A DNA stretch of 51,552 bases, from sequence record OL539457.1; one strand, written 5' to 3'. The notes below the pieces were generated by a model, which worked only from the letters and a program-made list of their open reading frames with translations, was not told where the DNA came from and ran no database searches. How positions within the stretch are numbered: position 1 is the first letter of the stretch; each line of letters starts with the position of its first letter. A program made the position numbers and the translations under genes. The DNA is from Klebsiella phage vB_KaeD_HazelMika. Positions 6,080-49,865 of the stretch are shown here, in pieces.

Positions 6080-6107
6080 TTGACCGTTTAGCAAAAAGTG
6101 CTATTAT
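6080..6107 (+). promoter_or_regulatory. sigma70-like promoter TTGACC-16-TATTAT for major capsid gene, overlapped by reversed TAGCA-N5-TGCTA palindrome
   Basis: Near-consensus hexamers. The spacer at 6087-6103 is the reverse complement of the conserved module motif, reading TAGCACTTTTTGCTAAA on the minus strand. Confidence 0.6.
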
Positions 6108-20529: not shown

Positions 20530-20838
20530 CTAGTTAAACACGTAAACTTCAATGGTAAGAGTCTGATCAACAAACGGGTTGCTTGTTGGCAGGTAAAGAA
20601 CATCAACGCCTCCGTTTTTCGTCACGGCTGCATAGCTGGCTTTATACACAGCGCCAGCAGATGCCACCATGACAACCGCGAACGAGTTGGCACCAGTCAG
20701 CCCAGCCACGTTGAAAGAAACCGCGCGAGTAGTTCGCGGGAATGATATGTTTTGCCGGACAACAAAGCGTGTGCTGAAATCGCCAAGATCGACAACCAGG
20801 TTTCCGCTTGCATCCCAGGCTTGCAGGCCAGCAGGCAT
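20530..20838 (-). CDS. hypothetical protein
   Basis: 102 aa, contains WDASGNLV. It is the first gene transcribed leftwards from the divergent control region. Confidence 0.45.
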   Translation of the reverse strand: MPAGLQAWDASGNLVVDLGDFSTRFVVRQNISFPRTTRAVSFNVAGLTGANSFAVVMVASAGAVYKASYAAVTKNGGVDVLYLPTSNPFVDQTLTIEVYVFN

Positions 20839-21278
20839 GGTGAATCCTCCATTCGTTTGATTAAGTCGAAATAATACACCAGGGCGCAGGAAGAATCAAA
20901 AATAACAGAGCGCCAGTTGTTCTATTTGTTATAGCTTGTTTCGAATTTACGCCGGACGGTGATTTGATCACTTTTTGCGCAGTGTCGCCAAGTAAGATAA
21001 TACAATAATATCTATATATAATAAGGGTTTAGTAATAATCATCATTATTATATTACTCTGTTTGTTATACTTGTTATCGTTGTTTCACTATCTTTCCGTG
21101 TATCTGCAAAAATATTACTTGAGTGTTTTGTGTGGGTATTGCGGCAGATGCAAACACACATACCCCTCCGCAGAAGGTGAAACATAGTGAACAAATAGAA
21201 CGGCGTTGATATTTAAGCATTTTTCTTGTTACACTCTAGCTATAACAAGAAATAACACTTATAACAGAATAAATAACA
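20839..21278. promoter_or_regulatory. divergent control region R1 (AT-rich, conserved blocks shared with 40532-41263)
   Basis: Contains tgtttgttatacttgttat, GTTTCAC (21082-21088) and ATACCCCTCCGCA (21160-21172), matching blocks in R2. Ends with a sigma70 promoter. Confidence 0.5.
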
Positions 21279-21306
21279 TTGACGAATCAAACCAATCGCG
21301 TATACT
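21279..21306 (+). promoter_or_regulatory. sigma70 promoter TTGACG-16-TATACT for recombination operon
   Basis: Good hexamers followed by a CA-rich leader. Confidence 0.6.
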
Positions 21307-21338
21307 CCACCACATCAACCACAAGCGAGGATTTACAG

Positions 21339-22397
21339 ATGACACCTACCAAACCGCAAGCGGATTTCTTCTGGTTCACAAACGACGAAATGCCGAACGA
21401 CTTTTATCACGATAAAGAAGCCTGGACGTTCGACTATGTTTCCGGTTCAAGCCTGGGTAAGATTCACTCATCATGCCTGGCAAAGTGGCGCTTCGAAGAG
21501 AATGAGCCAACGGCGGCGCTGGAGTTCGGCACGCAGGCGCACACCAACTTTGAAAGCAACGAGCTATTCGCATCAACCTACCGCCGCGCTCCGTTCGTTG
21601 AAGATTTCAAGGATGCGATCACGTCGCAAGCAGCATTCGCGGCTAAATTGAAAAGCTTCGGCCTGACAGGTACAAGCGGGAAGCAATATCCAGAGCTTTG
21701 CAAAATATACGCTGATTGCGGTGAAGATCTTAACGTAATGTGGATTGAAGATCTGATCGCGCAATCAAAGGCGGCGCGCGATGGCGTTGAGTTGGTAAAG
21801 GCCGAAGATTATGATGCCTGCGTTTCAATGCGTAAGGTGCTGGAGTCTATACCGGAATACGCACAACTAATGAACGATCCGGCAGCGATGCACGAGCTTT
21901 CATTGTTCGGAAAAATCAACGGCGTGAACGTCAAAGTTCGCCTGGACTACTGCGCAACAATCAGCGATCCTGAAATGATTAAGTTGCTGGGCTATAACCC
22001 AGAGATTCACCCAGAGATTGTGCTGATTCTTGACTATAAGACAACGACCAGCGCCAACCCTCACGAGTTCGATCGCAAGGCGTTTGATCTGGGCTATTAC
22101 TTGAAGATGGCTTTGCAGCGTGATTTGTTTGTCAAGGTGTTTGAAGAAACGCGCCCCGTCGCAGTTGTCCTACTAACCCAGGAAAAGAAAGCGCCATTCT
22201 TGCCTCTGGCTCGACCAATGACGAAAGAGCAGATCATTCACGGGCGCAAGCAGTACATGAGCGTTATTCACCAGTACGAGATCAGCAGCCGTGATGACGT
22301 TTGGCCTTCATACGCAAACGGCGCTCCATTCGTTCACCTGCAAACGCCGGATTACATCAAGCGCCAACATCCTGATATTTACGGCGAAAACAAATAG
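21339..22397 (+). CDS. PD-(D/E)XK recombination exonuclease (RecE/exoVIII-like)
   Basis: 352 aa with RBS GAGG before the ATG at 21339. Carries an ILDYKT nuclease-type motif and lies upstream of erf and ssb. The track start at 21279 is a TTG artefact inside the promoter. Confidence 0.55.
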   Translation: MTPTKPQADFFWFTNDEMPNDFYHDKEAWTFDYVSGSSLGKIHSSCLAKWRFEENEPTAALEFGTQAHTNFESNELFASTYRRAPFVEDFKDAITSQAAFAAKLKSFGLTGTSGKQYPELCKIYADCGEDLNVMWIEDLIAQSKAARDGVELVKAEDYDACVSMRKVLESIPEYAQLMNDPAAMHELSLFGKINGVNVKVRLDYCATISDPEMIKLLGYNPEIHPEIVLILDYKTTTSANPHEFDRKAFDLGYYLKMALQRDLFVKVFEETRPVAVVLLTQEKKAPFLPLARPMTKEQIIHGRKQYMSVIHQYEISSRDDVWPSYANGAPFVHLQTPDYIKRQHPDIYGENK

Positions 22398-26209: not shown

Positions 26210-27145
26210 TCACTCCGCCGAATCAATAAGATCCTGCGCGTTAAATAGTTGCCGCCGCATCCCTGTTTTGAAGTCCGATCCGTTCGGCACGATAACTTTC
26301 AACTCCCGATCATCTGCCATGTAAAGCGTTTGTAGGTCATCAGCAAGGCACGCAACGCGCAATTCCCGCTCTCCCTTGTAACGATACGCCACGATCTCAA
26401 GGTTGCTTGCATCAGTACAAACCCAGACTTCCTGATTGGTTGCGAAGTTCACCCGCTCGCCATCAGCCCAATCATTCACCAGGTAGATCGCGCCCTCACT
26501 CTCTCCGACTTTTATCACCGCTCCCCGCGTGTAATCCTTTGCAAGAAACGATCGGCTTCCATCCTCGAAGGAAAACATTATGTTGCACATTTCATCATCA
26601 AGGCCGTCATCATGCACCATATGGCACGGCAACGCGTGGATAAACTCATCAGACCCATCAGGACGCGATTTAACTCCTACGCTGTACGATTCGCCGTATA
26701 AACCTTCAAAGACCGTTAGAGGCGTGCTTGAGCGCAATTCTGTGCGGCTCATTACTTCAATGCAGGCCTCGTGATCAATCTGTTTCCCAAACGTGTAGCC
26801 GTTGTCTCTGGTTGCCCGCTTATTTGCCTTAACGCGATACTCTTGCGGAACCTTACCCAGAAAGCGCCCCAAGATGTTAATCACTTCACTGTACGGCTCG
26901 CCAGTTAAGCGCATCATCCAGCCAATGCCCTTGTCCGCTCCGCAACTGTTACAGTAAGCGCCGCCGTCGCCAGGCTCTTCAAGTTTATCAGTCCAGCGGA
27001 ATCTGTCTTTACCGCCGCATGACGGGCAACTCTGGTGTTTTTTGTTGAACACGATTGATGGCACGCCGCAAACAGACTGCAAAGCCTCGCGCCAAAGGCC
27101 TTTCATGTACGGCAATACTTCTTCTTTCTGAAACATTTCATTCAT
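26210..27145 (-). CDS. DNA primase (zinc-ribbon type)
   Basis: 311 aa with an N-terminal CPSCGG..17..CNSCG zinc ribbon typical of phage/plasmid primases. Adjacent to the helicase. Confidence 0.55.
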   Translation of the reverse strand: MNEMFQKEEVLPYMKGLWREALQSVCGVPSIVFNKKHQSCPSCGGKDRFRWTDKLEEPGDGGAYCNSCGADKGIGWMMRLTGEPYSEVINILGRFLGKVPQEYRVKANKRATRDNGYTFGKQIDHEACIEVMSRTELRSSTPLTVFEGLYGESYSVGVKSRPDGSDEFIHALPCHMVHDDGLDDEMCNIMFSFEDGSRSFLAKDYTRGAVIKVGESEGAIYLVNDWADGERVNFATNQEVWVCTDASNLEIVAYRYKGERELRVACLADDLQTLYMADDRELKVIVPNGSDFKTGMRRQLFNAQDLIDSAE

Positions 27146-27199: not shown

Positions 27200-27676
27200 T
27201 TATTCTTTAGCTTTTAGTGCTGCCTCACGCTCGCGCTTAATCCGTTTCCATGATGGTTGTTCCGGCTTGTGGGCTAACTCATCCTCACGAACCACACGCA
27301 TCATTTCACGCTTTTTGCATCGCACTGTTAATGGCTTGCCGTTGCCGTCGAAGGTGAGATCTGGTCGGCACCATGTAGCGCGAAAGCCCTTAGCCCCATT
27401 TCGCTTATATGCGTTGTGCGCCTTCTGCGCCCCGCGCGCGGAAATCATGCCGTTTTTAATCCAGGTGGTGAGCAGTGAGTTTGAGATCTTCAACTCACGG
27501 CAAACGTTGGCCTTCGAGCCGTAAAACTCGATAAGCATTTCAAGGCGGGCACGCAATCCGGCCTTTACTTCATCTTTCAGAACGTAGTAGCCTGTAGGCC
27601 GCTTGCGCTTCTTCTTGTCTGCGCCGCGCTGAGTTCCGTTGTTCCCGTTAATGGTTCTCTTGTCAACTTCAATCAT
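27200..27676 (-). CDS. HTH DNA-binding protein (putative transcriptional regulator)
   Basis: 158 aa, very basic, with a helix-turn-helix-like segment ANVCRELKISNSLLTTWIKNG. RBS GGGGGA. The conserved palindrome lies 11 nt upstream of its start codon. Confidence 0.5.
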   Translation of the reverse strand: MIEVDKRTINGNNGTQRGADKKKRKRPTGYYVLKDEVKAGLRARLEMLIEFYGSKANVCRELKISNSLLTTWIKNGMISARGAQKAHNAYKRNGAKGFRATWCRPDLTFDGNGKPLTVRCKKREMMRVVREDELAHKPEQPSWKRIKREREAALKAKE

Positions 27677-29843: not shown

Positions 29844-30259
29844 TCACCGATAAAGGCGAATATCTTGAGTATTACCAGGCCAACCCCCTGGACACGTGGA
29901 AAGAGGAAAAACACCAGGTTGATTGCGTGGCATGGCTGCGCTATCACTACCCGAACCTTTTATTCTGGCACACAGTCAACGAAGGGAAAAAGCATATCAA
30001 TTCCGCCCTTCGTGATGAGCAGGCGGGTCTAAAAAAGGGCGTAAGCGACTTCGTAATCCTGATTGGTCATAACGATCGCAAGTACGCATTTGCGGCGATT
30101 GAGTTGAAGAGAACCAACAAGAGCGGCAAGGCCAAAGCATCGCCAGTTAGCAAAGAGCAGAAAGCTTTCTTGCTTGACGTGCGCGAGCGCGGAGGATTCG
30201 CGGCGGTTGCATACGGTCTGGATCAGTTTAAATTAGCGATCGAAGATATGTTGAAATAG
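29840..30259 (+). CDS. VRR-NUC domain nuclease
   Basis: 139 aa with a PD-(D/E)XK-type motif SDFVILIG..AIELKR. Overlaps the helicase stop. Confidence 0.55.
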   Translation: MITDKGEYLEYYQANPLDTWKEEKHQVDCVAWLRYHYPNLLFWHTVNEGKKHINSALRDEQAGLKKGVSDFVILIGHNDRKYAFAAIELKRTNKSGKAKASPVSKEQKAFLLDVRERGGFAAVAYGLDQFKLAIEDMLK

Positions 30260-30299
30260 CACGAATTGCTAAACACGTGCCGGAGCAATCCTGCATAAT
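30254..30299 (+). promoter_or_regulatory. conserved module: AAATAGCACGAATTGCTAAAC + 22 nt hairpin (GCAA loop) + CATAAT
   Basis: The TAG inside the motif is the stop of the VRR-NUC gene. Precedes dam. Confidence 0.55.
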
Positions 30300-30329: not shown

Positions 30330-31058
30330 ATGAAAGACGTTGCAGACAAAGACACTCATGACGCGTTTGTTACCTTCGAACAAATCGAGCGTGAGAACTT
30401 CATCACAAACGCGCTAGTTCCAGGTTGCGGGCATTATTCGGCGGTCAAGCCGGACACGTTCTACCAGGTGACTGGCAACCGTTATGCCGGAAGCAAGACG
30501 CCGGATGTTGTGCGCGATTTGTGGGCTACCGATCGCGAGCTTATCGGCTGGATGGAAAAGCGTTACGGCAAGTATGACATTGACGCGGCGGCGAGCGAAA
30601 ACAACGCAGTGTGTGAAAAGTTCTACGACGAAAAGCGCAACTGTTTGAAAATCTGGTGGGGCAAAGACAAGCACATCTGGCTCAATCCTCCGTACTCACA
30701 TCCCGATCCTTTCGTTAAAAAGGCGATTGAGCAGATGGAGCACGGCAACCAGATTGATATGCTTCTTCCTGGCGACAACTCAACGGCATGGTTTGCCGAA
30801 GCGCGAGCAAACGCGGCGGAGGTCATCTGGATTGAGGCAGAGATCACAGAGATTGACCAGCAGGAATACTGCCGAACCGGACGCCTGGCCTTTATCTCTG
30901 GGCTAACCGGAAAACCAGTTGACGGCAACAACAAAGGCAGCGTGATTTTCATCATGCGCGAACTGAAAGAAGGCGAGACACAACAAACGCATTACGTTTC
31001 CGTAAGCGAGATTTGCCCAGGTGTTAGCCGCAAGAAACCACGCAAGCGGAGTGTTTAA
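30330..31058 (+). CDS. dam: DNA N6-adenine methyltransferase (phage Dam-like)
   Basis: 242 aa with a catalytic NPPYS motif and an AdoMet-binding region. Confidence 0.75.
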   Translation: MKDVADKDTHDAFVTFEQIERENFITNALVPGCGHYSAVKPDTFYQVTGNRYAGSKTPDVVRDLWATDRELIGWMEKRYGKYDIDAAASENNAVCEKFYDEKRNCLKIWWGKDKHIWLNPPYSHPDPFVKKAIEQMEHGNQIDMLLPGDNSTAWFAEARANAAEVIWIEAEITEIDQQEYCRTGRLAFISGLTGKPVDGNNKGSVIFIMRELKEGETQQTHYVSVSEICPGVSRKKPRKRSV

Positions 31059-35447: not shown

Positions 35448-37040
35448 TCATCCCAGGAGGCGAGGGTTAACGTAAACTTTATCACCAATCACGCAGCAAT
35501 AGCCCTTTTCCTCAAGTTGAGGTAGGAGGTGATCTTTGATGCGCGTCATGGTTCCGGCCTGACCTTCGAACGGCTTCACCTTACGCGCCGCCTCATACAG
35601 AGAACGGACGTTAACAACACCTTTAGGCGATCCGCTTTTGGCGCTGCGGCTCATGATGTCCAACAACTTATTCATTTCCGCGTTATCACCAGCGTGCCCA
35701 GCGGCGTTGGCGGAAGATAAATACGTCTTGCTCAACTCGTGGAACATAATGATCGCCTCTTGCATCGTGTCAAGTTCGATCTCACGAGACTTTGTCGCCG
35801 CTCCTTTCTCGCTAAACCAGTTACGCACAGTGTGCAGGACGGAAGCGATTCGGATCACCTGCTTATCAAACTTACCCAGGGCACCGCGTAACATGGTGTG
35901 GGAATACTTTCCGCCGTCTGCAAGGTGAGGCTCCATTTCCTGACGCGCTTTGTTCAGATAGCGCATACCGGACGGGCTAACGGTCAACTTCACATCAACT
36001 TCGCTCATGATGGCATGGATCAACTTGAAGTAATCAGCCTTTAAACCTCCATCAATCGGCTCGTAAGTCGATTCGCCTTTGTCGTCAACGAACTGGCGAC
36101 GGCCTAAGAATGATTCCTCACGCACCAGCAAGAAACGCTCAGAAACACCGATACCTCGCGCGCCTGCATTCATGATGGCGTTGATTGTCTCATCCTGGGC
36201 TATAACCGAAATGCAGCCCAGCGCAACGAATGACATATTGTTATCCGCGTTAGCACGAGCGATCGACACGTTGCCCGCATCCCACGCCTTGAGCACTAAC
36301 TCACTGTTTGTTTTCTTCGAGCCGTCGCCGTAGGTCATACCCAGAAGAGAGTTAACGCTTGTCGCTTCGTCCGATATCACAGCGAAGTTGCCTTGACGGT
36401 TGTTAATGCGCGCCAGGCCTTCTGGTGTGGTATCAGATACCGGAAACACGATATCACAAAGGCGCTCAAGCTTCTCTTCTAACTCTTCCTTCTCTTCGAA
36501 CAGCGCCGCCATATCTGACGGTGATTTCTCCTGCTTCATTTCCTTCGCCAGAGCCGAAAGCTTCGCCATGATCTTCTTGCGATCACGCTTGCGGATCTCG
36601 TTTAGTCGCTCAGTCTCCGAAATCATCGGAGCCAGGGAAAGTGAGTTGATGGCAGATTTACCCGTTGACGGCGGCTGACTGGTGACAACGTAGAGCGCCG
36701 TTGGTTGTTGCGTGCCGTGATACTCAACCGTAAAGCGACCCAGCATAGCGGCAGAAACGCAGCCCAGGAAATGAATATAGGCCGATGACTCTGGGAACTG
36801 CACAGATCGCGCAGCGTTACGCGAAAGCTTGCCCACAACGTCAACATCATTTCCAAGAGAGATTACAGGATATTTTTCATTCCCGTTGTCGATTTCGGTT
36901 GGCTCGTTCCAGAACGATTGCGAATGGCGATAGCCATTAGCATTGATCGCAACACGGATGGGGTTCAACCCTTCTTTGTTGGCGATCTCCACGATCTGCT
37001 GTGCTGTGAGCGTGTTTGTGTTGAAACCTAAATCAAACAT
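35448..37040 (-). CDS. DUF3987-like P-loop ATPase (primase/helicase-associated)
   Basis: 530 aa with a Walker A motif VTSQPPSTGKS. RBS AAAGGAG. It has its own module upstream. Confidence 0.5.
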   Translation of the reverse strand: MFDLGFNTNTLTAQQIVEIANKEGLNPIRVAINANGYRHSQSFWNEPTEIDNGNEKYPVISLGNDVDVVGKLSRNAARSVQFPESSAYIHFLGCVSAAMLGRFTVEYHGTQQPTALYVVTSQPPSTGKSAINSLSLAPMISETERLNEIRKRDRKKIMAKLSALAKEMKQEKSPSDMAALFEEKEELEEKLERLCDIVFPVSDTTPEGLARINNRQGNFAVISDEATSVNSLLGMTYGDGSKKTNSELVLKAWDAGNVSIARANADNNMSFVALGCISVIAQDETINAIMNAGARGIGVSERFLLVREESFLGRRQFVDDKGESTYEPIDGGLKADYFKLIHAIMSEVDVKLTVSPSGMRYLNKARQEMEPHLADGGKYSHTMLRGALGKFDKQVIRIASVLHTVRNWFSEKGAATKSREIELDTMQEAIIMFHELSKTYLSSANAAGHAGDNAEMNKLLDIMSRSAKSGSPKGVVNVRSLYEAARKVKPFEGQAGTMTRIKDHLLPQLEEKGYCCVIGDKVYVNPRLLG

Positions 37041-37530: not shown

Positions 37531-37566
37531 TATGAGATCCTTTGTTGTCTCGTTTGGTGTAAAATG

Positions 37567-37610
37567 AATATAACAAAACCCGCCGAAGCGGGTTTAACAA
37601 AAAGTGCTAT
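37567..37610 (-). promoter_or_regulatory. conserved module (minus): ATAGCACTTTTTGTTAAA + 22 nt terminator-like hairpin (cccgcTTCGgcggg) + TATATT
   Basis: The hairpin is identical to the one at window positions 8-21. Confidence 0.55.
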
Positions 37611-40067: not shown

Positions 40068-40261
40068 TCAGCGCGTCAATTGCTTTTCGTATCGGTTAAG
40101 CTTGATCCAGATCTCACCGTACTTGCGCGCCCACTTGTTCGCACCAGGCCGAAAGAGCGCCTCTGTATCGTACAGGTGAGAATAAACCCACTTCATGCAG
40201 GCTATATGCCGGAGCATCCCCTTGCACTTGCCGCGATTTGTCCAGCGCTTGATAATTTTCA
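40068..40261 (-). CDS. hypothetical protein
   Basis: 64 aa, basic, ATGA-coupled. Confidence 0.35.
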
Positions 40262-40519
40262 TGATTTCACCGTTAAAAATTGAACCGCCTTTTCGATGCA
40301 CTCACCCTGCGATCCGTAGAACACAGAGAAACCACGCTGGCAGATTGTCCAGGTACGCGATCCCTTTCTGGTCTGCTTAATCTCAACGTGTCCGTAAGGA
40401 TTCCTACGCACGCACTTGAACGCCCCGACCTTCTCACCCTTGCGCTTCGTGCTGTATTTGTCCGTAACGACAATCCCGCTATCAGTTGCCATGTCGATTG
40501 CTTCGTTGATTGTAATCAT
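40259..40519 (-). CDS. hypothetical protein
   Basis: 86 aa, first gene of the leftward early operon. Confidence 0.4.
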   Translation of the reverse strand: MITINEAIDMATDSGIVVTDKYSTKRKGEKVGAFKCVRRNPYGHVEIKQTRKGSRTWTICQRGFSVFYGSQGECIEKAVQFLTVKS

Positions 40520-40547
40520 GTTTTGCCCCATTCGTTTCGATGAAATG

Positions 40548-40593
40548 ATAGTAACCCATCGCCCCTGATCGGTTTTAGCAAAAAGTGCTATTT
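40548..40593 (-). promoter_or_regulatory. conserved module (minus): ATAGCACTTTTTGCTAAAAC + 22 nt + TACTAT
   Basis: Spacer hairpin cgatcaggggcgatgggt. Confidence 0.55.
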
Positions 40594-40610
40594 ATTCGAT
40601 TGCCCTCCAT

Positions 40611-40667
40611 TATTCCAGTTATTCCAATTATTCCGAATATTCCATTCCATCGGAATAACTATTCCAG
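40611..40667. repeat. iteron-like array TATTCC(A/G) x6 (one copy inverted)
   Basis: Copies of tattcca/ttattcca at 40611, 40619, 40630, 40638, 40645 and 40660, with an inverted cggaata at 40651. Confidence 0.7.
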
Positions 40668-40743
40668 ATCTCCTTGCAGATCAGATCCGATCGCGATGAT
40701 TCGATGCCGCTCCTTTCGTGATTAGATTTGACGAGTTTTGATT

Positions 40744-40793
40744 GTGATGTGATGAATGATGATGATTGATGACACTAGACCGATTGGTCTAAT
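40744..40793. repeat. GATGA/TGATG short repeats plus inverted repeat TAGACC-N4-GGTCTA
   Basis: gtgatgtgatgaatgatgatgattgatgac, then tagaccgattggtcta at 40776-40791. Confidence 0.6.
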
Positions 40794-41203
40794 CATTTTT
40801 TTCGCACCGCACTTTTTGCGCTTGTTATTGTTGTTACCCTGTGTTTCAATTTCACGCCCTCCGTGGAATCCGAAACGGAATAGTTGTTAATTAACAAAAA
40901 TAACACTATATCCCTTTATAGTAAGTAATTAATATATATAGGTTTTTTATATTATATAAATATTGTTGTTATAGATTGTTCTATGTGTTTCACCATTCAC
41001 GGGAGATATGTATACATTTTCCGAAAGGAATGGGCATATGATATTGCGCTTCCATTTGGACGGCGTGACGTAGGTATACATATACCCCTCCGCAAATAGC
41101 GGAACAAGGGCAACATCCGATAACATTCGTCGCTAACAAGCGGTGCGCCTGCTCTCGCCTCGCGAAAAGTGTTATAAGGCCGATTATTAACAGCGGGTAA
41201 CAG

Positions 41204-41232
41204 TTGACAACAACCGCGCCACCAGGCACAAT
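41204..41232 (+). promoter_or_regulatory. sigma70 promoter TTGACA-17-CACAAT (rightward early promoter)
   Basis: Consensus -35 with a 17-nt spacer. The track ORF start at 41204 is a TTG artefact. Confidence 0.6.
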
Positions 41233-41263
41233 GCAGCCATCCACAACCAAAGGAGAAATAACC

Positions 41264-41770
41264 ATGTCAGAGAGAACGTTAGCAAATATCGTGCGCCACA
41301 TCGCAACCCAGGCCCTGGCTCATGAAGAGCAGGTGTTGGCTGTGTCATTGCAAGCCATCGTGCAAAACCTCGACCCAGACGGCGCGCCGATGCCAGGTAG
41401 CGAGGAAATGGATGCAGCCGTTGCCGCGCTCAAAAAGAAGATGACCAAATCTTACATCACGATCACCATCAATCGCATGAAGGATGTGCAGGCCGCCAAT
41501 AAGTCAGCCGTTGCCCGATTCTTCACGTGTGACGATCGCGGCGTTGCAATGCTGGAAGTCGGATTTAAGGAAGGCAACACGACACGCGAGCGGGGCGCAA
41601 TCCAGGCAGACCGCACGCAGTACAAGCGCGGATATCATGACGGGTTAGACAAGGCGATCGCCTTTGTTCCAGACTTCGTGGATTACTCCGACGAGGAAAC
41701 GCTCATCGCTCGCCGCCTCCTGGTGGAAATGCGCGCTCACCTGGCGACGCTCAAGGAAGGTGCAGAATGA
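41264..41770 (+). CDS. hypothetical protein
   Basis: 168 aa with RBS AAAGGAG, first rightward early gene. Confidence 0.45.
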   Translation: MSERTLANIVRHIATQALAHEEQVLAVSLQAIVQNLDPDGAPMPGSEEMDAAVAALKKKMTKSYITITINRMKDVQAANKSAVARFFTCDDRGVAMLEVGFKEGNTTRERGAIQADRTQYKRGYHDGLDKAIAFVPDFVDYSDEETLIARRLLVEMRAHLATLKEGAE

Positions 41771-41977: not shown

Positions 41978-42193
41978 ATGAACAATTATCGAGTAGTGCA
42001 CATCAAAGAGTATGATGCGGAAGGTTATACGAGCGCCTCATATTACGCGGTTGAGCGTAGGGTGCGATTCATCCCCTGGCTCTGGCGACACGTCAAGTTC
42101 TACGATCGCAGTGAAGAGGCTTTCTTCCACAAGTCAAGGCTGGACAGGGTGAAGGGTAAGCGAAAAGAGCGAATCATCATCAGCAACGAATAG
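41978..42193 (+). CDS. hypothetical protein (paralog of previous gene)
   Basis: 71 aa with a YAVERRVRFIPW..HKSR pattern. Confidence 0.45.
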   Translation: MNNYRVVHIKEYDAEGYTSASYYAVERRVRFIPWLWRHVKFYDRSEEAFFHKSRLDRVKGKRKERIIISNE

Positions 42194-42233
42194 CACGAAT
42201 TGCTAAACATTAGCCGGAGCAATCCGGCATAAT
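42189..42233 (+). promoter_or_regulatory. conserved module: AATAGCACGAATTGCTAAAC + 22 nt hairpin + CATAAT
   Basis: The extended hairpin cattagccggaGCAAtccggcataatg pairs the -10 hexamer into the stem. Confidence 0.55.
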
Positions 42234-42265
42234 GCTTTCACACCAAACGAAACGAGGCAATGAAC

Positions 42266-48149: not shown

Positions 48150-48193
48150 ATAGCACGAATTGCTAAACCCGCTCCGGCGGGTTTTGTTATAGT
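48149..48193 (+). promoter_or_regulatory. conserved module: AAATAGCACGAATTGCTAAAC + 22 nt terminator-like hairpin + TATAGT
   Basis: Hairpin cccgctccggcggg followed by TTTTGT. Confidence 0.55.
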
Positions 48194-48224
48194 TACTCCA
48201 CACCAAACAACAGAGGCATTAACC

Positions 48225-49821: not shown

Positions 49822-49865
49822 ATAGCACGAATTGCTAAAACAAGCCTGGGGTAAGCTGTTATAGT
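49820..49865 (+). promoter_or_regulatory. conserved module: AAATAGCACGAATTGCTAAAAC + 22 nt hairpin + TATAGT
   Basis: A ggggtaa/ttacccc stem encloses the -10. Confidence 0.55.

Follow-up and report, generated by a model that had tools for sequence, protein, structure and literature searches.

A candidate composite early-control and packaging region in the Vilniusvirus Klebsiella phage vB_KaeD_HazelMika

Elements of the intergenic region

The window analysed in this study is the whole 51,552-nt sequence of Klebsiella phage vB_KaeD_HazelMika (OL539457.1), a T1-like phage belonging to Vilniusvirus (Drexlerviridae). It is about 96% identical to Klebsiella phage KLB19 and Escherichia phage vB_EcoS_NBD2, and these two were the only matches to a megablast query covering 40300-41500 (~96% identity). 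Its gene order is collinear with those of T1 and TLS, with core proteins that are 50-65% identical. The region of interest separates two divergent early genes, is 96-97% identical among the window, KLB19 and NBD2, and has all of its features present in all three. These features, and three others elsewhere in the genome that bear on them, are as follows.

40259-40531, minus strand: first leftward gene, start codon at 40531
40532-41263: divergent intergenic region, 733 bp, between 40259-40531 (minus) and 41264-41770 (plus)
40548-40591, minus strand: predicted leftward early promoter P_L, with box ATAGCACTTTTTGCTAAAAC at 40572-40591, an 18-bp spacer and TACTAT at 40548-40553
40611-40666, plus strand: TATTCC hexamer array, six hexamers in 56 nt, presumed protein-binding sites
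40667-40692: GATC (Dam) cluster, four sites in 26 bp
40718-40773, plus strand: C-poor TGAT/TGATG-rich zone including GATTAGATTTGA (40720-40731); predicted pac zone, first headful rightward
40776-40791: palindrome TAGACCGATTGGTCTA (TAGACC-N4-GGTCTA), followed by a T run
40806-41094, plus strand: AT-tract module, made up of a box, flanking repeats, AT tract, inverted repeat and 13-mer
40810-40821: degenerate box CACTTTTTGCGC of the AT-tract module
40822-40848 and 40966-40992: 27-nt direct repeats flanking the AT tract (~40884-40965)
41001-41015 and 41074-41088: arms of a long imperfect inverted repeat in the AT-tract module
41082-41094: 13-mer ATACCCCTCCGCA of the AT-tract module
41204-41232, plus strand: sigma-70-type rightward promoter (TTGACA, 17 bp, CACAAT) before the DUF7174 gene
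41264-41770, plus strand: first rightward gene, DUF7174
48-629: small terminase, matching GP3_package of the P22 gp3 family (Pfam PF16677, E = 3.8e-10)
20910-21172: paralogous AT module in the divergent gap between 20530-20838 (minus) and the recE-like gene 21279-22397, upstream of recombination genes
30330-31058: Dam homologue encoded by the phage

A sequence-only reading of the window had placed this region between leftward and rightward early promoters, and the positions of P_L (40548-40591) and the rightward promoter (41204-41232) agree with that. The same reading put it 13 kb from the primase and helicase genes, which holds for the primase gene (26210-27145; 13.4 kb) but not for the DUF3987 helicase gene (35448-37040), which is 3.5 kb away. 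The GC skew has a local minimum at ~41 kb, but transcription changes direction at the same point, so that the minimum carries no information, and an Rfam scan of the whole window found a tRNA alone.

The significance of the repeats was assessed with 300 dinucleotide-preserving shuffles of the whole window. TATTCCA occurs at 40611, 40620, 40638 and 40660, TATTCCG at 40629 and the inverted GGAATA at 40652-40657, so that all six previously reported copies, including the inverted one, can be read directly. There are 27 copies of TATTCC/GGAATA in 51.5 kb, six of them in one 60-nt stretch, a density that none of the 300 shuffles reached (maximum 3). The heptamer TATTCCA is at chance level genome-wide (8 found vs 4.5 expected), with four of the eight inside the array. 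The spacing had been given as 7-9 bp, but the first four copies (40611, 40620, 40629 and 40638) form a strict tandem with a 9-bp period and gaps of 2 nt. One further copy, TATTCCG in inverted orientation, borders the AT tract at 40876-40882.

Right of the array, TGATG/CATCA occurs five times in 40 nt at 40745 (0/300 shuffles), whereas four copies of GATGA/TCATC in 40 nt were matched by 9 of 300 shuffles, which is weak. Both had been listed together, at 40744-40772. The inverted repeat TAGACC-N4-GGTCTA was correctly located at 40776-40791 and is followed by a T run; TAGACCGATTGGTCTA is probably a protein-binding site and possibly a weak terminator as well. The GATC cluster had gone unlisted; its density of four sites per 30 nt was reached by 3 of 300 shuffles. 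Over the whole 51.5 kb there are 348 GATC sites where ~200 would be expected, by simple arithmetic from length at near 50% GC. The 49.9-kb genome of TLS has 254 GATC sites, more than 200 of which are stated to be adenine-methylated (PMC11447400).

The three Vilniusvirus genomes differ in the genes beside the leftward promoter (window 40259-40531; KLB19, locus L001 2960-3488; NBD2, locus L002 2960-3461), and KLB19 and NBD2 have ~265 and ~200 extra bases there, respectively. The NBD2_87 ORF annotated inside the NBD2 intergenic region is probably spurious.

Early promoters and a duplicated AT-rich module

On the minus strand, 40573-40591 of the P_L box match aaATAGCACnnnTTGnTAAAA exactly, and the match lies 41 nt upstream of the first leftward start codon (40531). 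aaATAGCACnnnTTGnTAAAA is the consensus of a 21-nt direct repeat of the T1 family that was reported in TLS, T1 and Rtp, and whose function was left open by the TLS authors (PMC11447400). In the window this dispersed element, ATAGCAC-N3-TTG-N-TAA, is present in 26 copies compared to about one expected, and nearly all are oriented along local transcription. It also accounts for the result of a sensitive blastn search with the intergenic region, in which 393 Drexlerviridae records matched, all of them only over 40532-40645. A -10-like hexamer lies exactly 18 bp past the 20-bp box in 16 of the 26 copies (random positions, 4.5%), which marks the dispersed boxes as promoter elements. The 18-bp distance from box to -10 is the geometry of class II marbox promoters. 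From the positions of the P_L box and TACTAT, the hexamer array falls at about -70 to -126, that is, 70-126 bp upstream of the inferred P_L start, and ~215 bp from the AT tract. Equivalents of the rightward promoter were read by eye in TLS and LF82-10.

The boxes also fit the MarA/SoxS/Rob consensus AYnGCACnnWnnRYYAAAY (PMC3709825), with 26 sites at one mismatch or fewer compared to 0.98 expected, 10 of them perfect (examples are 6086-6104 and 40573-40591 on the minus strand and 30256-30274, 42190-42208 and 49822-49840 on the plus strand). A search of the literature for a link between marboxes and T1-like phages found none. It may be that host Rob/MarA/SoxS serve this phage, or that a functional mimic does. 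Several of the dispersed promoters, among them those at 37560-37610 (minus), 48150-48200 (plus) and 42190-42235 (plus), have an 18-bp spacer that itself forms a GC-rich hairpin with a T run behind it, as in CCCGCTTCGGCGGGTTTTGTTATATT. The terminator of one transcription unit is thereby nested in the promoter of the next.

The AT tract, earlier described as very AT-rich at 40900-40985, proved to be the AT maximum of the genome (86% AT in the 80 nt that start at 40888). The second-highest value, 82.5% at 20998, falls in the paralogous module at 20910-21172, which has the CACTTTTTGCGC box, a TTGTTATAGNTTGTT repeat and an exact copy of the 13-mer ATACCCCTCCGCA, and each of these three sequences occurs in the genome only at the two modules. 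AT tracts are found at the same place as that of the window in every related locus examined, and T1 has a second tract (29990-30090) at the site equivalent to the paralogue. The paralogous module at 21 kb has no array, and on these data the tract is uncoupled from the hexamers. The two modules could be strong bidirectional early promoters, or promoter-plus-unwinding origins of the T4/T7 kind.

A conserved leader RNA to the right of the tract was considered and dropped, since the paralogous segment does not fold well. The segment 41001-41104, with the inverted repeat and a small hairpin, has a predicted fold of -41.2 kcal/mol (z = -4.1; 0/200 shuffles as good), but z is -1.05 for the paralogous segment 21085-21205 and intermediate (-2.3) for that of LF82-10. 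In the Eclunavirus-type phage Phc (locus L004 2730-3290) and in loci L052 and L055, about 10 copies of CGGAGGATT in both orientations surround the AT tract. The AT tracts of the window and of other lineages are flanked by a CCCTCCG / CCTCCGCA motif, which CGGAGGATT resembles.

Layout and packaging ends in related phages

The region was compared with those of T1, TLS, LF82-10, Phc, YP10S2, SU57 and more than 40 distinct IMG/VR loci, the latter retrieved with the DUF3987 helicase, large terminase and dNMP kinase as anchors. All have their elements in one order: first the box and a variable element, next a TGAT-rich zone poor in C and a palindrome or hairpin, and then an extreme AT tract, a long leader and the rightward promoter. 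The variable slot is occupied by TATTCC, usually as two direct and two inverted copies, in T1, Vilniusvirus, LF82-10, Phc, YP10S2 and several groups of IMG/VR contigs, in a patchy distribution across the family. It holds ATTGCAATGATT-type repeats in Rtp-like phages and SU57, two TAGACCGATTGGTCTA copies in TLS-type phages and TGTCA-N3-TGACA in other lineages. Where TATTCC is present (T1, LF82-10, Phc, YP10S2 and many IMG/VR contigs), the hexamer core is kept while flanks, copy number and orientation vary, and this conservation of the exact hexamer argues for protein binding.

The T1 junction (NC_005833, 48675-48836 joined to 1-538), which holds the pac end, has the same element order as the window: the dispersed box, four TATTCC, a GATC pair, a TGATG-rich zone, a palindrome, a second box, the AT tract and the rightward promoter. 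The flanking divergent early genes and the overall gene order are also the same. The two differ in that the T1 hexamers are two direct and two inverted copies at offsets 0, 21, 36 and 45, the first abutting the box as in other T1-type phages, whereas the window has four tandem copies at 9 bp and two more, 20 bp from the box. The palindrome and tract-flanking repeats also differ in sequence, and the proteins are 50-65% identical.

TLS shares with the window a pac intergenic region, the dispersed box, a TGAT zone with GATTAGATTTGA, a GATC cluster and an identical TAGACCGATTGGTCTA. In contrast to the window it has no TATTCC array, and at that position TLS and loci L057 and L065 have the identical 16-mer TAGACCGATTGGTCTA as two overlapping tandem copies. 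The authors of the TLS study reported no iterons anywhere in that genome (PMC11447400). The TLS copies of TAGACCGATTGGTCTA lie at 469-504 of locus L009 (49768-49803 of the record), and the 16-mer is identical in the window and TLS even in its non-palindromic centre, in genomes whose proteins are otherwise only 50-70% identical. Locus L063, whose small terminase is 99% identical to that of TLS, is without TAGACCGATTGGTCTA. A partner of the TAGACC palindrome was sought among the rightward early genes in a comparison of TLS-type phages, and none was found.

The depletion of C on the top strand of the TGAT zone is family-wide: the minimum C per 50 nt averages 2.2, compared to 5.4 for G. A GATTAGATTTGA-like 12-mer with two or fewer mismatches was present in 23 of 59 distinct modules. 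GATC clusters like that of the window occur in TLS-type phages, but the count across 41 distinct modules (59 observed vs 61 expected) gives no family-wide enrichment and rules out the cluster as a family feature.

Packaging ends of three relatives fall in this part of the layout. The T1 record (NC_005833) is linear, and its position 1, where a 2800-bp terminal-repeat feature begins, falls within the TGATG zone, 39 nt to the right of the final GGAATA. The pac of TLS was mapped via a submolar HindIII fragment in restriction digests, and its record was opened in the TGAT zone at a position refined by resemblance to the pac of P22 (PMC11447400). For SU57, the authors chose the end from PhageTerm and an abrupt change in read coverage, and they place the pac of T1-like phages in this untranslated region; the record begins after the repeat zone and before the AT tract. 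All three ends thus lie between the variable slot and the AT tract, in the equivalent of the TGAT-rich zone, although it should be noted that the T1 and TLS positions are partly author judgement. The NBD2 record was opened simply in front of its first gene.

The agreement among T1, TLS and SU57 predicts a packaging start at 40700-40800 of the window, and by homology this supports the alternative offered in the earlier reading, that the region is a pac region. The terminase of the window is of the headful type, with a P22 gp3-family small subunit and a large subunit 65% identical to that of T1. The first-headful end itself is mapped at this site in the relatives T1, TLS and SU57 only, and extending it to this phage, which would cut where its relatives do (~40700-40800), relies on the shared layout. 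P22 and Sf6 likewise combine a gp3-type small terminase with headful packaging, and the window has, at 40723-40728, the AGATTT core to which the TLS authors drew attention. However, the pac of P22 lies inside the small-terminase gene and that of the window would be non-coding and ~11 kb upstream of it, and a match of the two at 10 of 22 positions (manual count) is not significant.

Proposed function of the region and candidate readers of the hexamers

On balance, the locus is best explained as a composite early-control and packaging region of T1-like phages, comprising P_L, an operator-like hexamer array, a pac zone and an AT module. Repeat clustering beyond chance, a family-wide layout, the ends of three relatives in the TGAT zone and a genome-wide promoter geometry are established by the comparisons above. 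In the proposed arrangement, the box and -10 at 40548-40591 would form the leftward early promoter, and the TATTCC array upstream of it would offer operator-like binding sites for a sequence-specific protein. Terminase would make its first cut in the C-poor TGAT-rich stretch (~40700-40800), and the headful series would then proceed rightward. The AT-rich module, present in two copies in the genome, would serve promoter or DNA-opening functions and would not be the partner of the hexamers. The protein bound to the hexamers would modulate P_L and/or the architecture of the packaging complex, though simple repressors do not usually act from -70 to -126, which counts against this reading.

That pac lies in this untranslated region is already known in the T1-like field, and the present result is for the most part the recovery of a known region from a new Vilniusvirus genome. 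What is added is the base-level anatomy of the region across the family, a concrete prediction of the cut zone at 40700-40800, evidence that the hexamer array is a swappable cassette tied to neither terminase nor replication genes, and the finding that the AT tract is duplicated. No description of the hexamer cassette or the duplicated AT module was found in the literature searched, and both are details within a known kind of region. The anatomy makes questions about T1 testable, namely the locations of pac and the origin and the control of early transcription, and it is relevant to engineering or rebooting Drexlerviridae genomes.

The primary claim of the sequence-only reading was that iterons lie here beside an AT-rich unwinding element. 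In an origin of this type, a phage initiator (the primase, the DUF3987 helicase or another protein) would bind TATTCC and melt the AT tract. Repeats and the genome AT maximum do occur in one intergenic region, much as the iteron origins of plasmids and lambda have short repeats and an AT-rich stretch in one non-coding region; an inverted TATTCCG marks the edge of the tract, and T1-like phages have no established replication origin. However, the array ends at 40666 and the tract starts at ~40884, about 215 bp away, and the GATC cluster, the TGAT packaging zone, the palindrome and a promoter-like box separate the two. Each unit has a 6-bp core (7-9 bp with flanks), the period is 9 bp and one unit is inverted; these are not iterons of 17-22 bp. 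No DnaA box (TTWTNCACA) is present in 40532-41263, the three matches in the genome being elsewhere. In unit length, spacing, distance to AT-rich DNA and the absence of DnaA boxes and a cognate initiator gene, the locus differs from plasmid and lambda origins. Moreover, the array is absent or replaced in relatives with the same replication genes (Rtp-like phages and the relatives of loci L020 and L039), no initiator type co-varies with it among replication proteins and early ORF clusters, T1-type phages do not conserve the hexamer that borders the tract, and the AT module is duplicated at 21 kb without the array. Taken together, these observations leave the claim unsupported and make an iteron origin very unlikely. 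An origin independent of the hexamers is a less remote prospect, although still a doubtful one: the AT modules at 40.9 and 21.0 kb would be transcription-primed origins of the T4 oriF or T7 primary-origin kind. In each of two paralogous modules a sequence resembling the promoter box adjoins one of the two AT-richest stretches in the genome, T1 has its second tract at the equivalent place, and T1-like phages encode a primase, helicases and recombinases with no recognised initiator. Lineage-specific repeats also flank the tract (about 10 copies of CGGAGGATT in Phc, L052 and L055, three of GATTAACAC in T1, and GTGAACA in TLS). This support is purely architectural, however, and box orientation differs between lineages, flanking repeats vary among close relatives, the segment right of the tract folds in one copy but not in the paralogue, and both modules sit where divergent early promoters would be expected anyway.

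Two other explanations concern packaging. The TATTCC array could be the recognition site of the small terminase, like pacL of SPP1 or cosB of lambda, with the cut made in the adjoining TGAT zone. It is 36-100 bp from the T1 end position, the motif is clustered at this locus only in the genome, and clusters of small terminases (at least 90% identity) each have a mostly uniform left module. Across the compared loci, however, presence of the array did not co-vary with small-terminase similarity, and across small-terminase clusters the site pattern is equally explained by vertical descent. TLS and loci L063 and L365 have small terminases 99% identical, yet the element at the array position is swapped and the TGAT zone kept; the zone is similarly kept among TLS-type phages in general, whose small terminases are 91-99% identical. 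The small terminase of the window is 55-62% identical to those of Rtp-like phages, which have no TATTCC, and 54% identical to that of T1, which does. Loci L332 and L337 differ in the whole left module, with small terminases 77% and large terminases 92.5% identical, which favours a terminase site, but the 77% is within the spread of the other proteins of that pair. Recognition in the P22 gp3 family is by a single asymmetric site of ~22 bp, a precedent that is not an array. A terminase site at the hexamers is accordingly considered improbable. Packaging could also be started under Dam control in the manner of P1, the four GATC sites having to be fully methylated before terminase cuts. Four sites in 26 bp do lie beside the predicted cut zone, the phage encodes a Dam methylase, and TLS-type phages keep three spaced GATC at the same place. 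Against this, GATC is not enriched across the modules, many of which have none (among them that of L054, a close relative of T1), and the window has sites on one side only, unlike P1, whose pac has two flanking sets. We give Dam control little credence.

Candidate phage readers of the hexamers were tested by co-variation with the array. No family of the primase, DUF3987 helicase, SNF2-type helicase, annotated regulator or Dam separates by array class, and the array is present in loci L020 and L039 but missing from the loci nearest to them in primase, regulator and both helicases. Binding of the array by the DUF3987 ATPase, as had been suggested, is contradicted because Rtp-like phages have no TATTCC with a protein 81-85% identical, whereas T1 has the array with one only 56% identical. 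The first leftward gene was suspected because loci L039 and L028 differ in just that gene and the left module, but it was rejected: loci with and without the array occur together in its families, and NBD2 and the window combine the same array with different genes at this place. In phyletic profiling of early ORFs of at least 30 aa from 21 loci, no cluster was present in all array-bearing loci and absent elsewhere. Among the phage early genes, then, no cognate regulator linked to or co-occurring with the array was found. The annotated regulator (27200-27676) gave no fold assignment in sequence searches of Pfam, PHROGs and PDB.

The binder could be encoded by the host, or it could be a conserved phage protein that can do without the array. 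A bolder reading, to which we attach a low probability, holds that the TATTCC array is one of several interchangeable recognition cassettes (the others being TAGACCGATTGGTCTA, TGTCA-N3-TGACA and ATTGCAATGATT) occupying a fixed slot between P_L and the packaging start, each read by a different factor that is not encoded adjacent to it and is perhaps host-encoded. This reading fits with the canonical MarA/SoxS/Rob boxes carried by the 26 dispersed promoters; if true, such a factor could link host physiology to early transcription or to the start of packaging. When viral and bacterial collections were scanned for three tandem TATTCC units, no Enterobacterales were among the bacterial matches listed. 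The matches listed included NBD2 and one 51-kb contig from a Drexlerviridae-rich metagenome, the others being not recognisably related. In an informal comparison with the consensus sites for NarL, RcsAB, ArgR, Fur, CytR and low-affinity DnaA binding, none convincingly fits TATTCC.

Ribbon-helix-helix regulators bind arrays of short repeats, such as the omega heptads of pSM19035 and the MetJ boxes. The array of the window differs from these in lying upstream of its promoter without overlapping it, and in having no co-occurring candidate regulator gene. It resembles them in its contiguous short units of 7-9 bp, in the presence of both direct and inverted units, in a copy number that varies among relatives and in its position next to a promoter.
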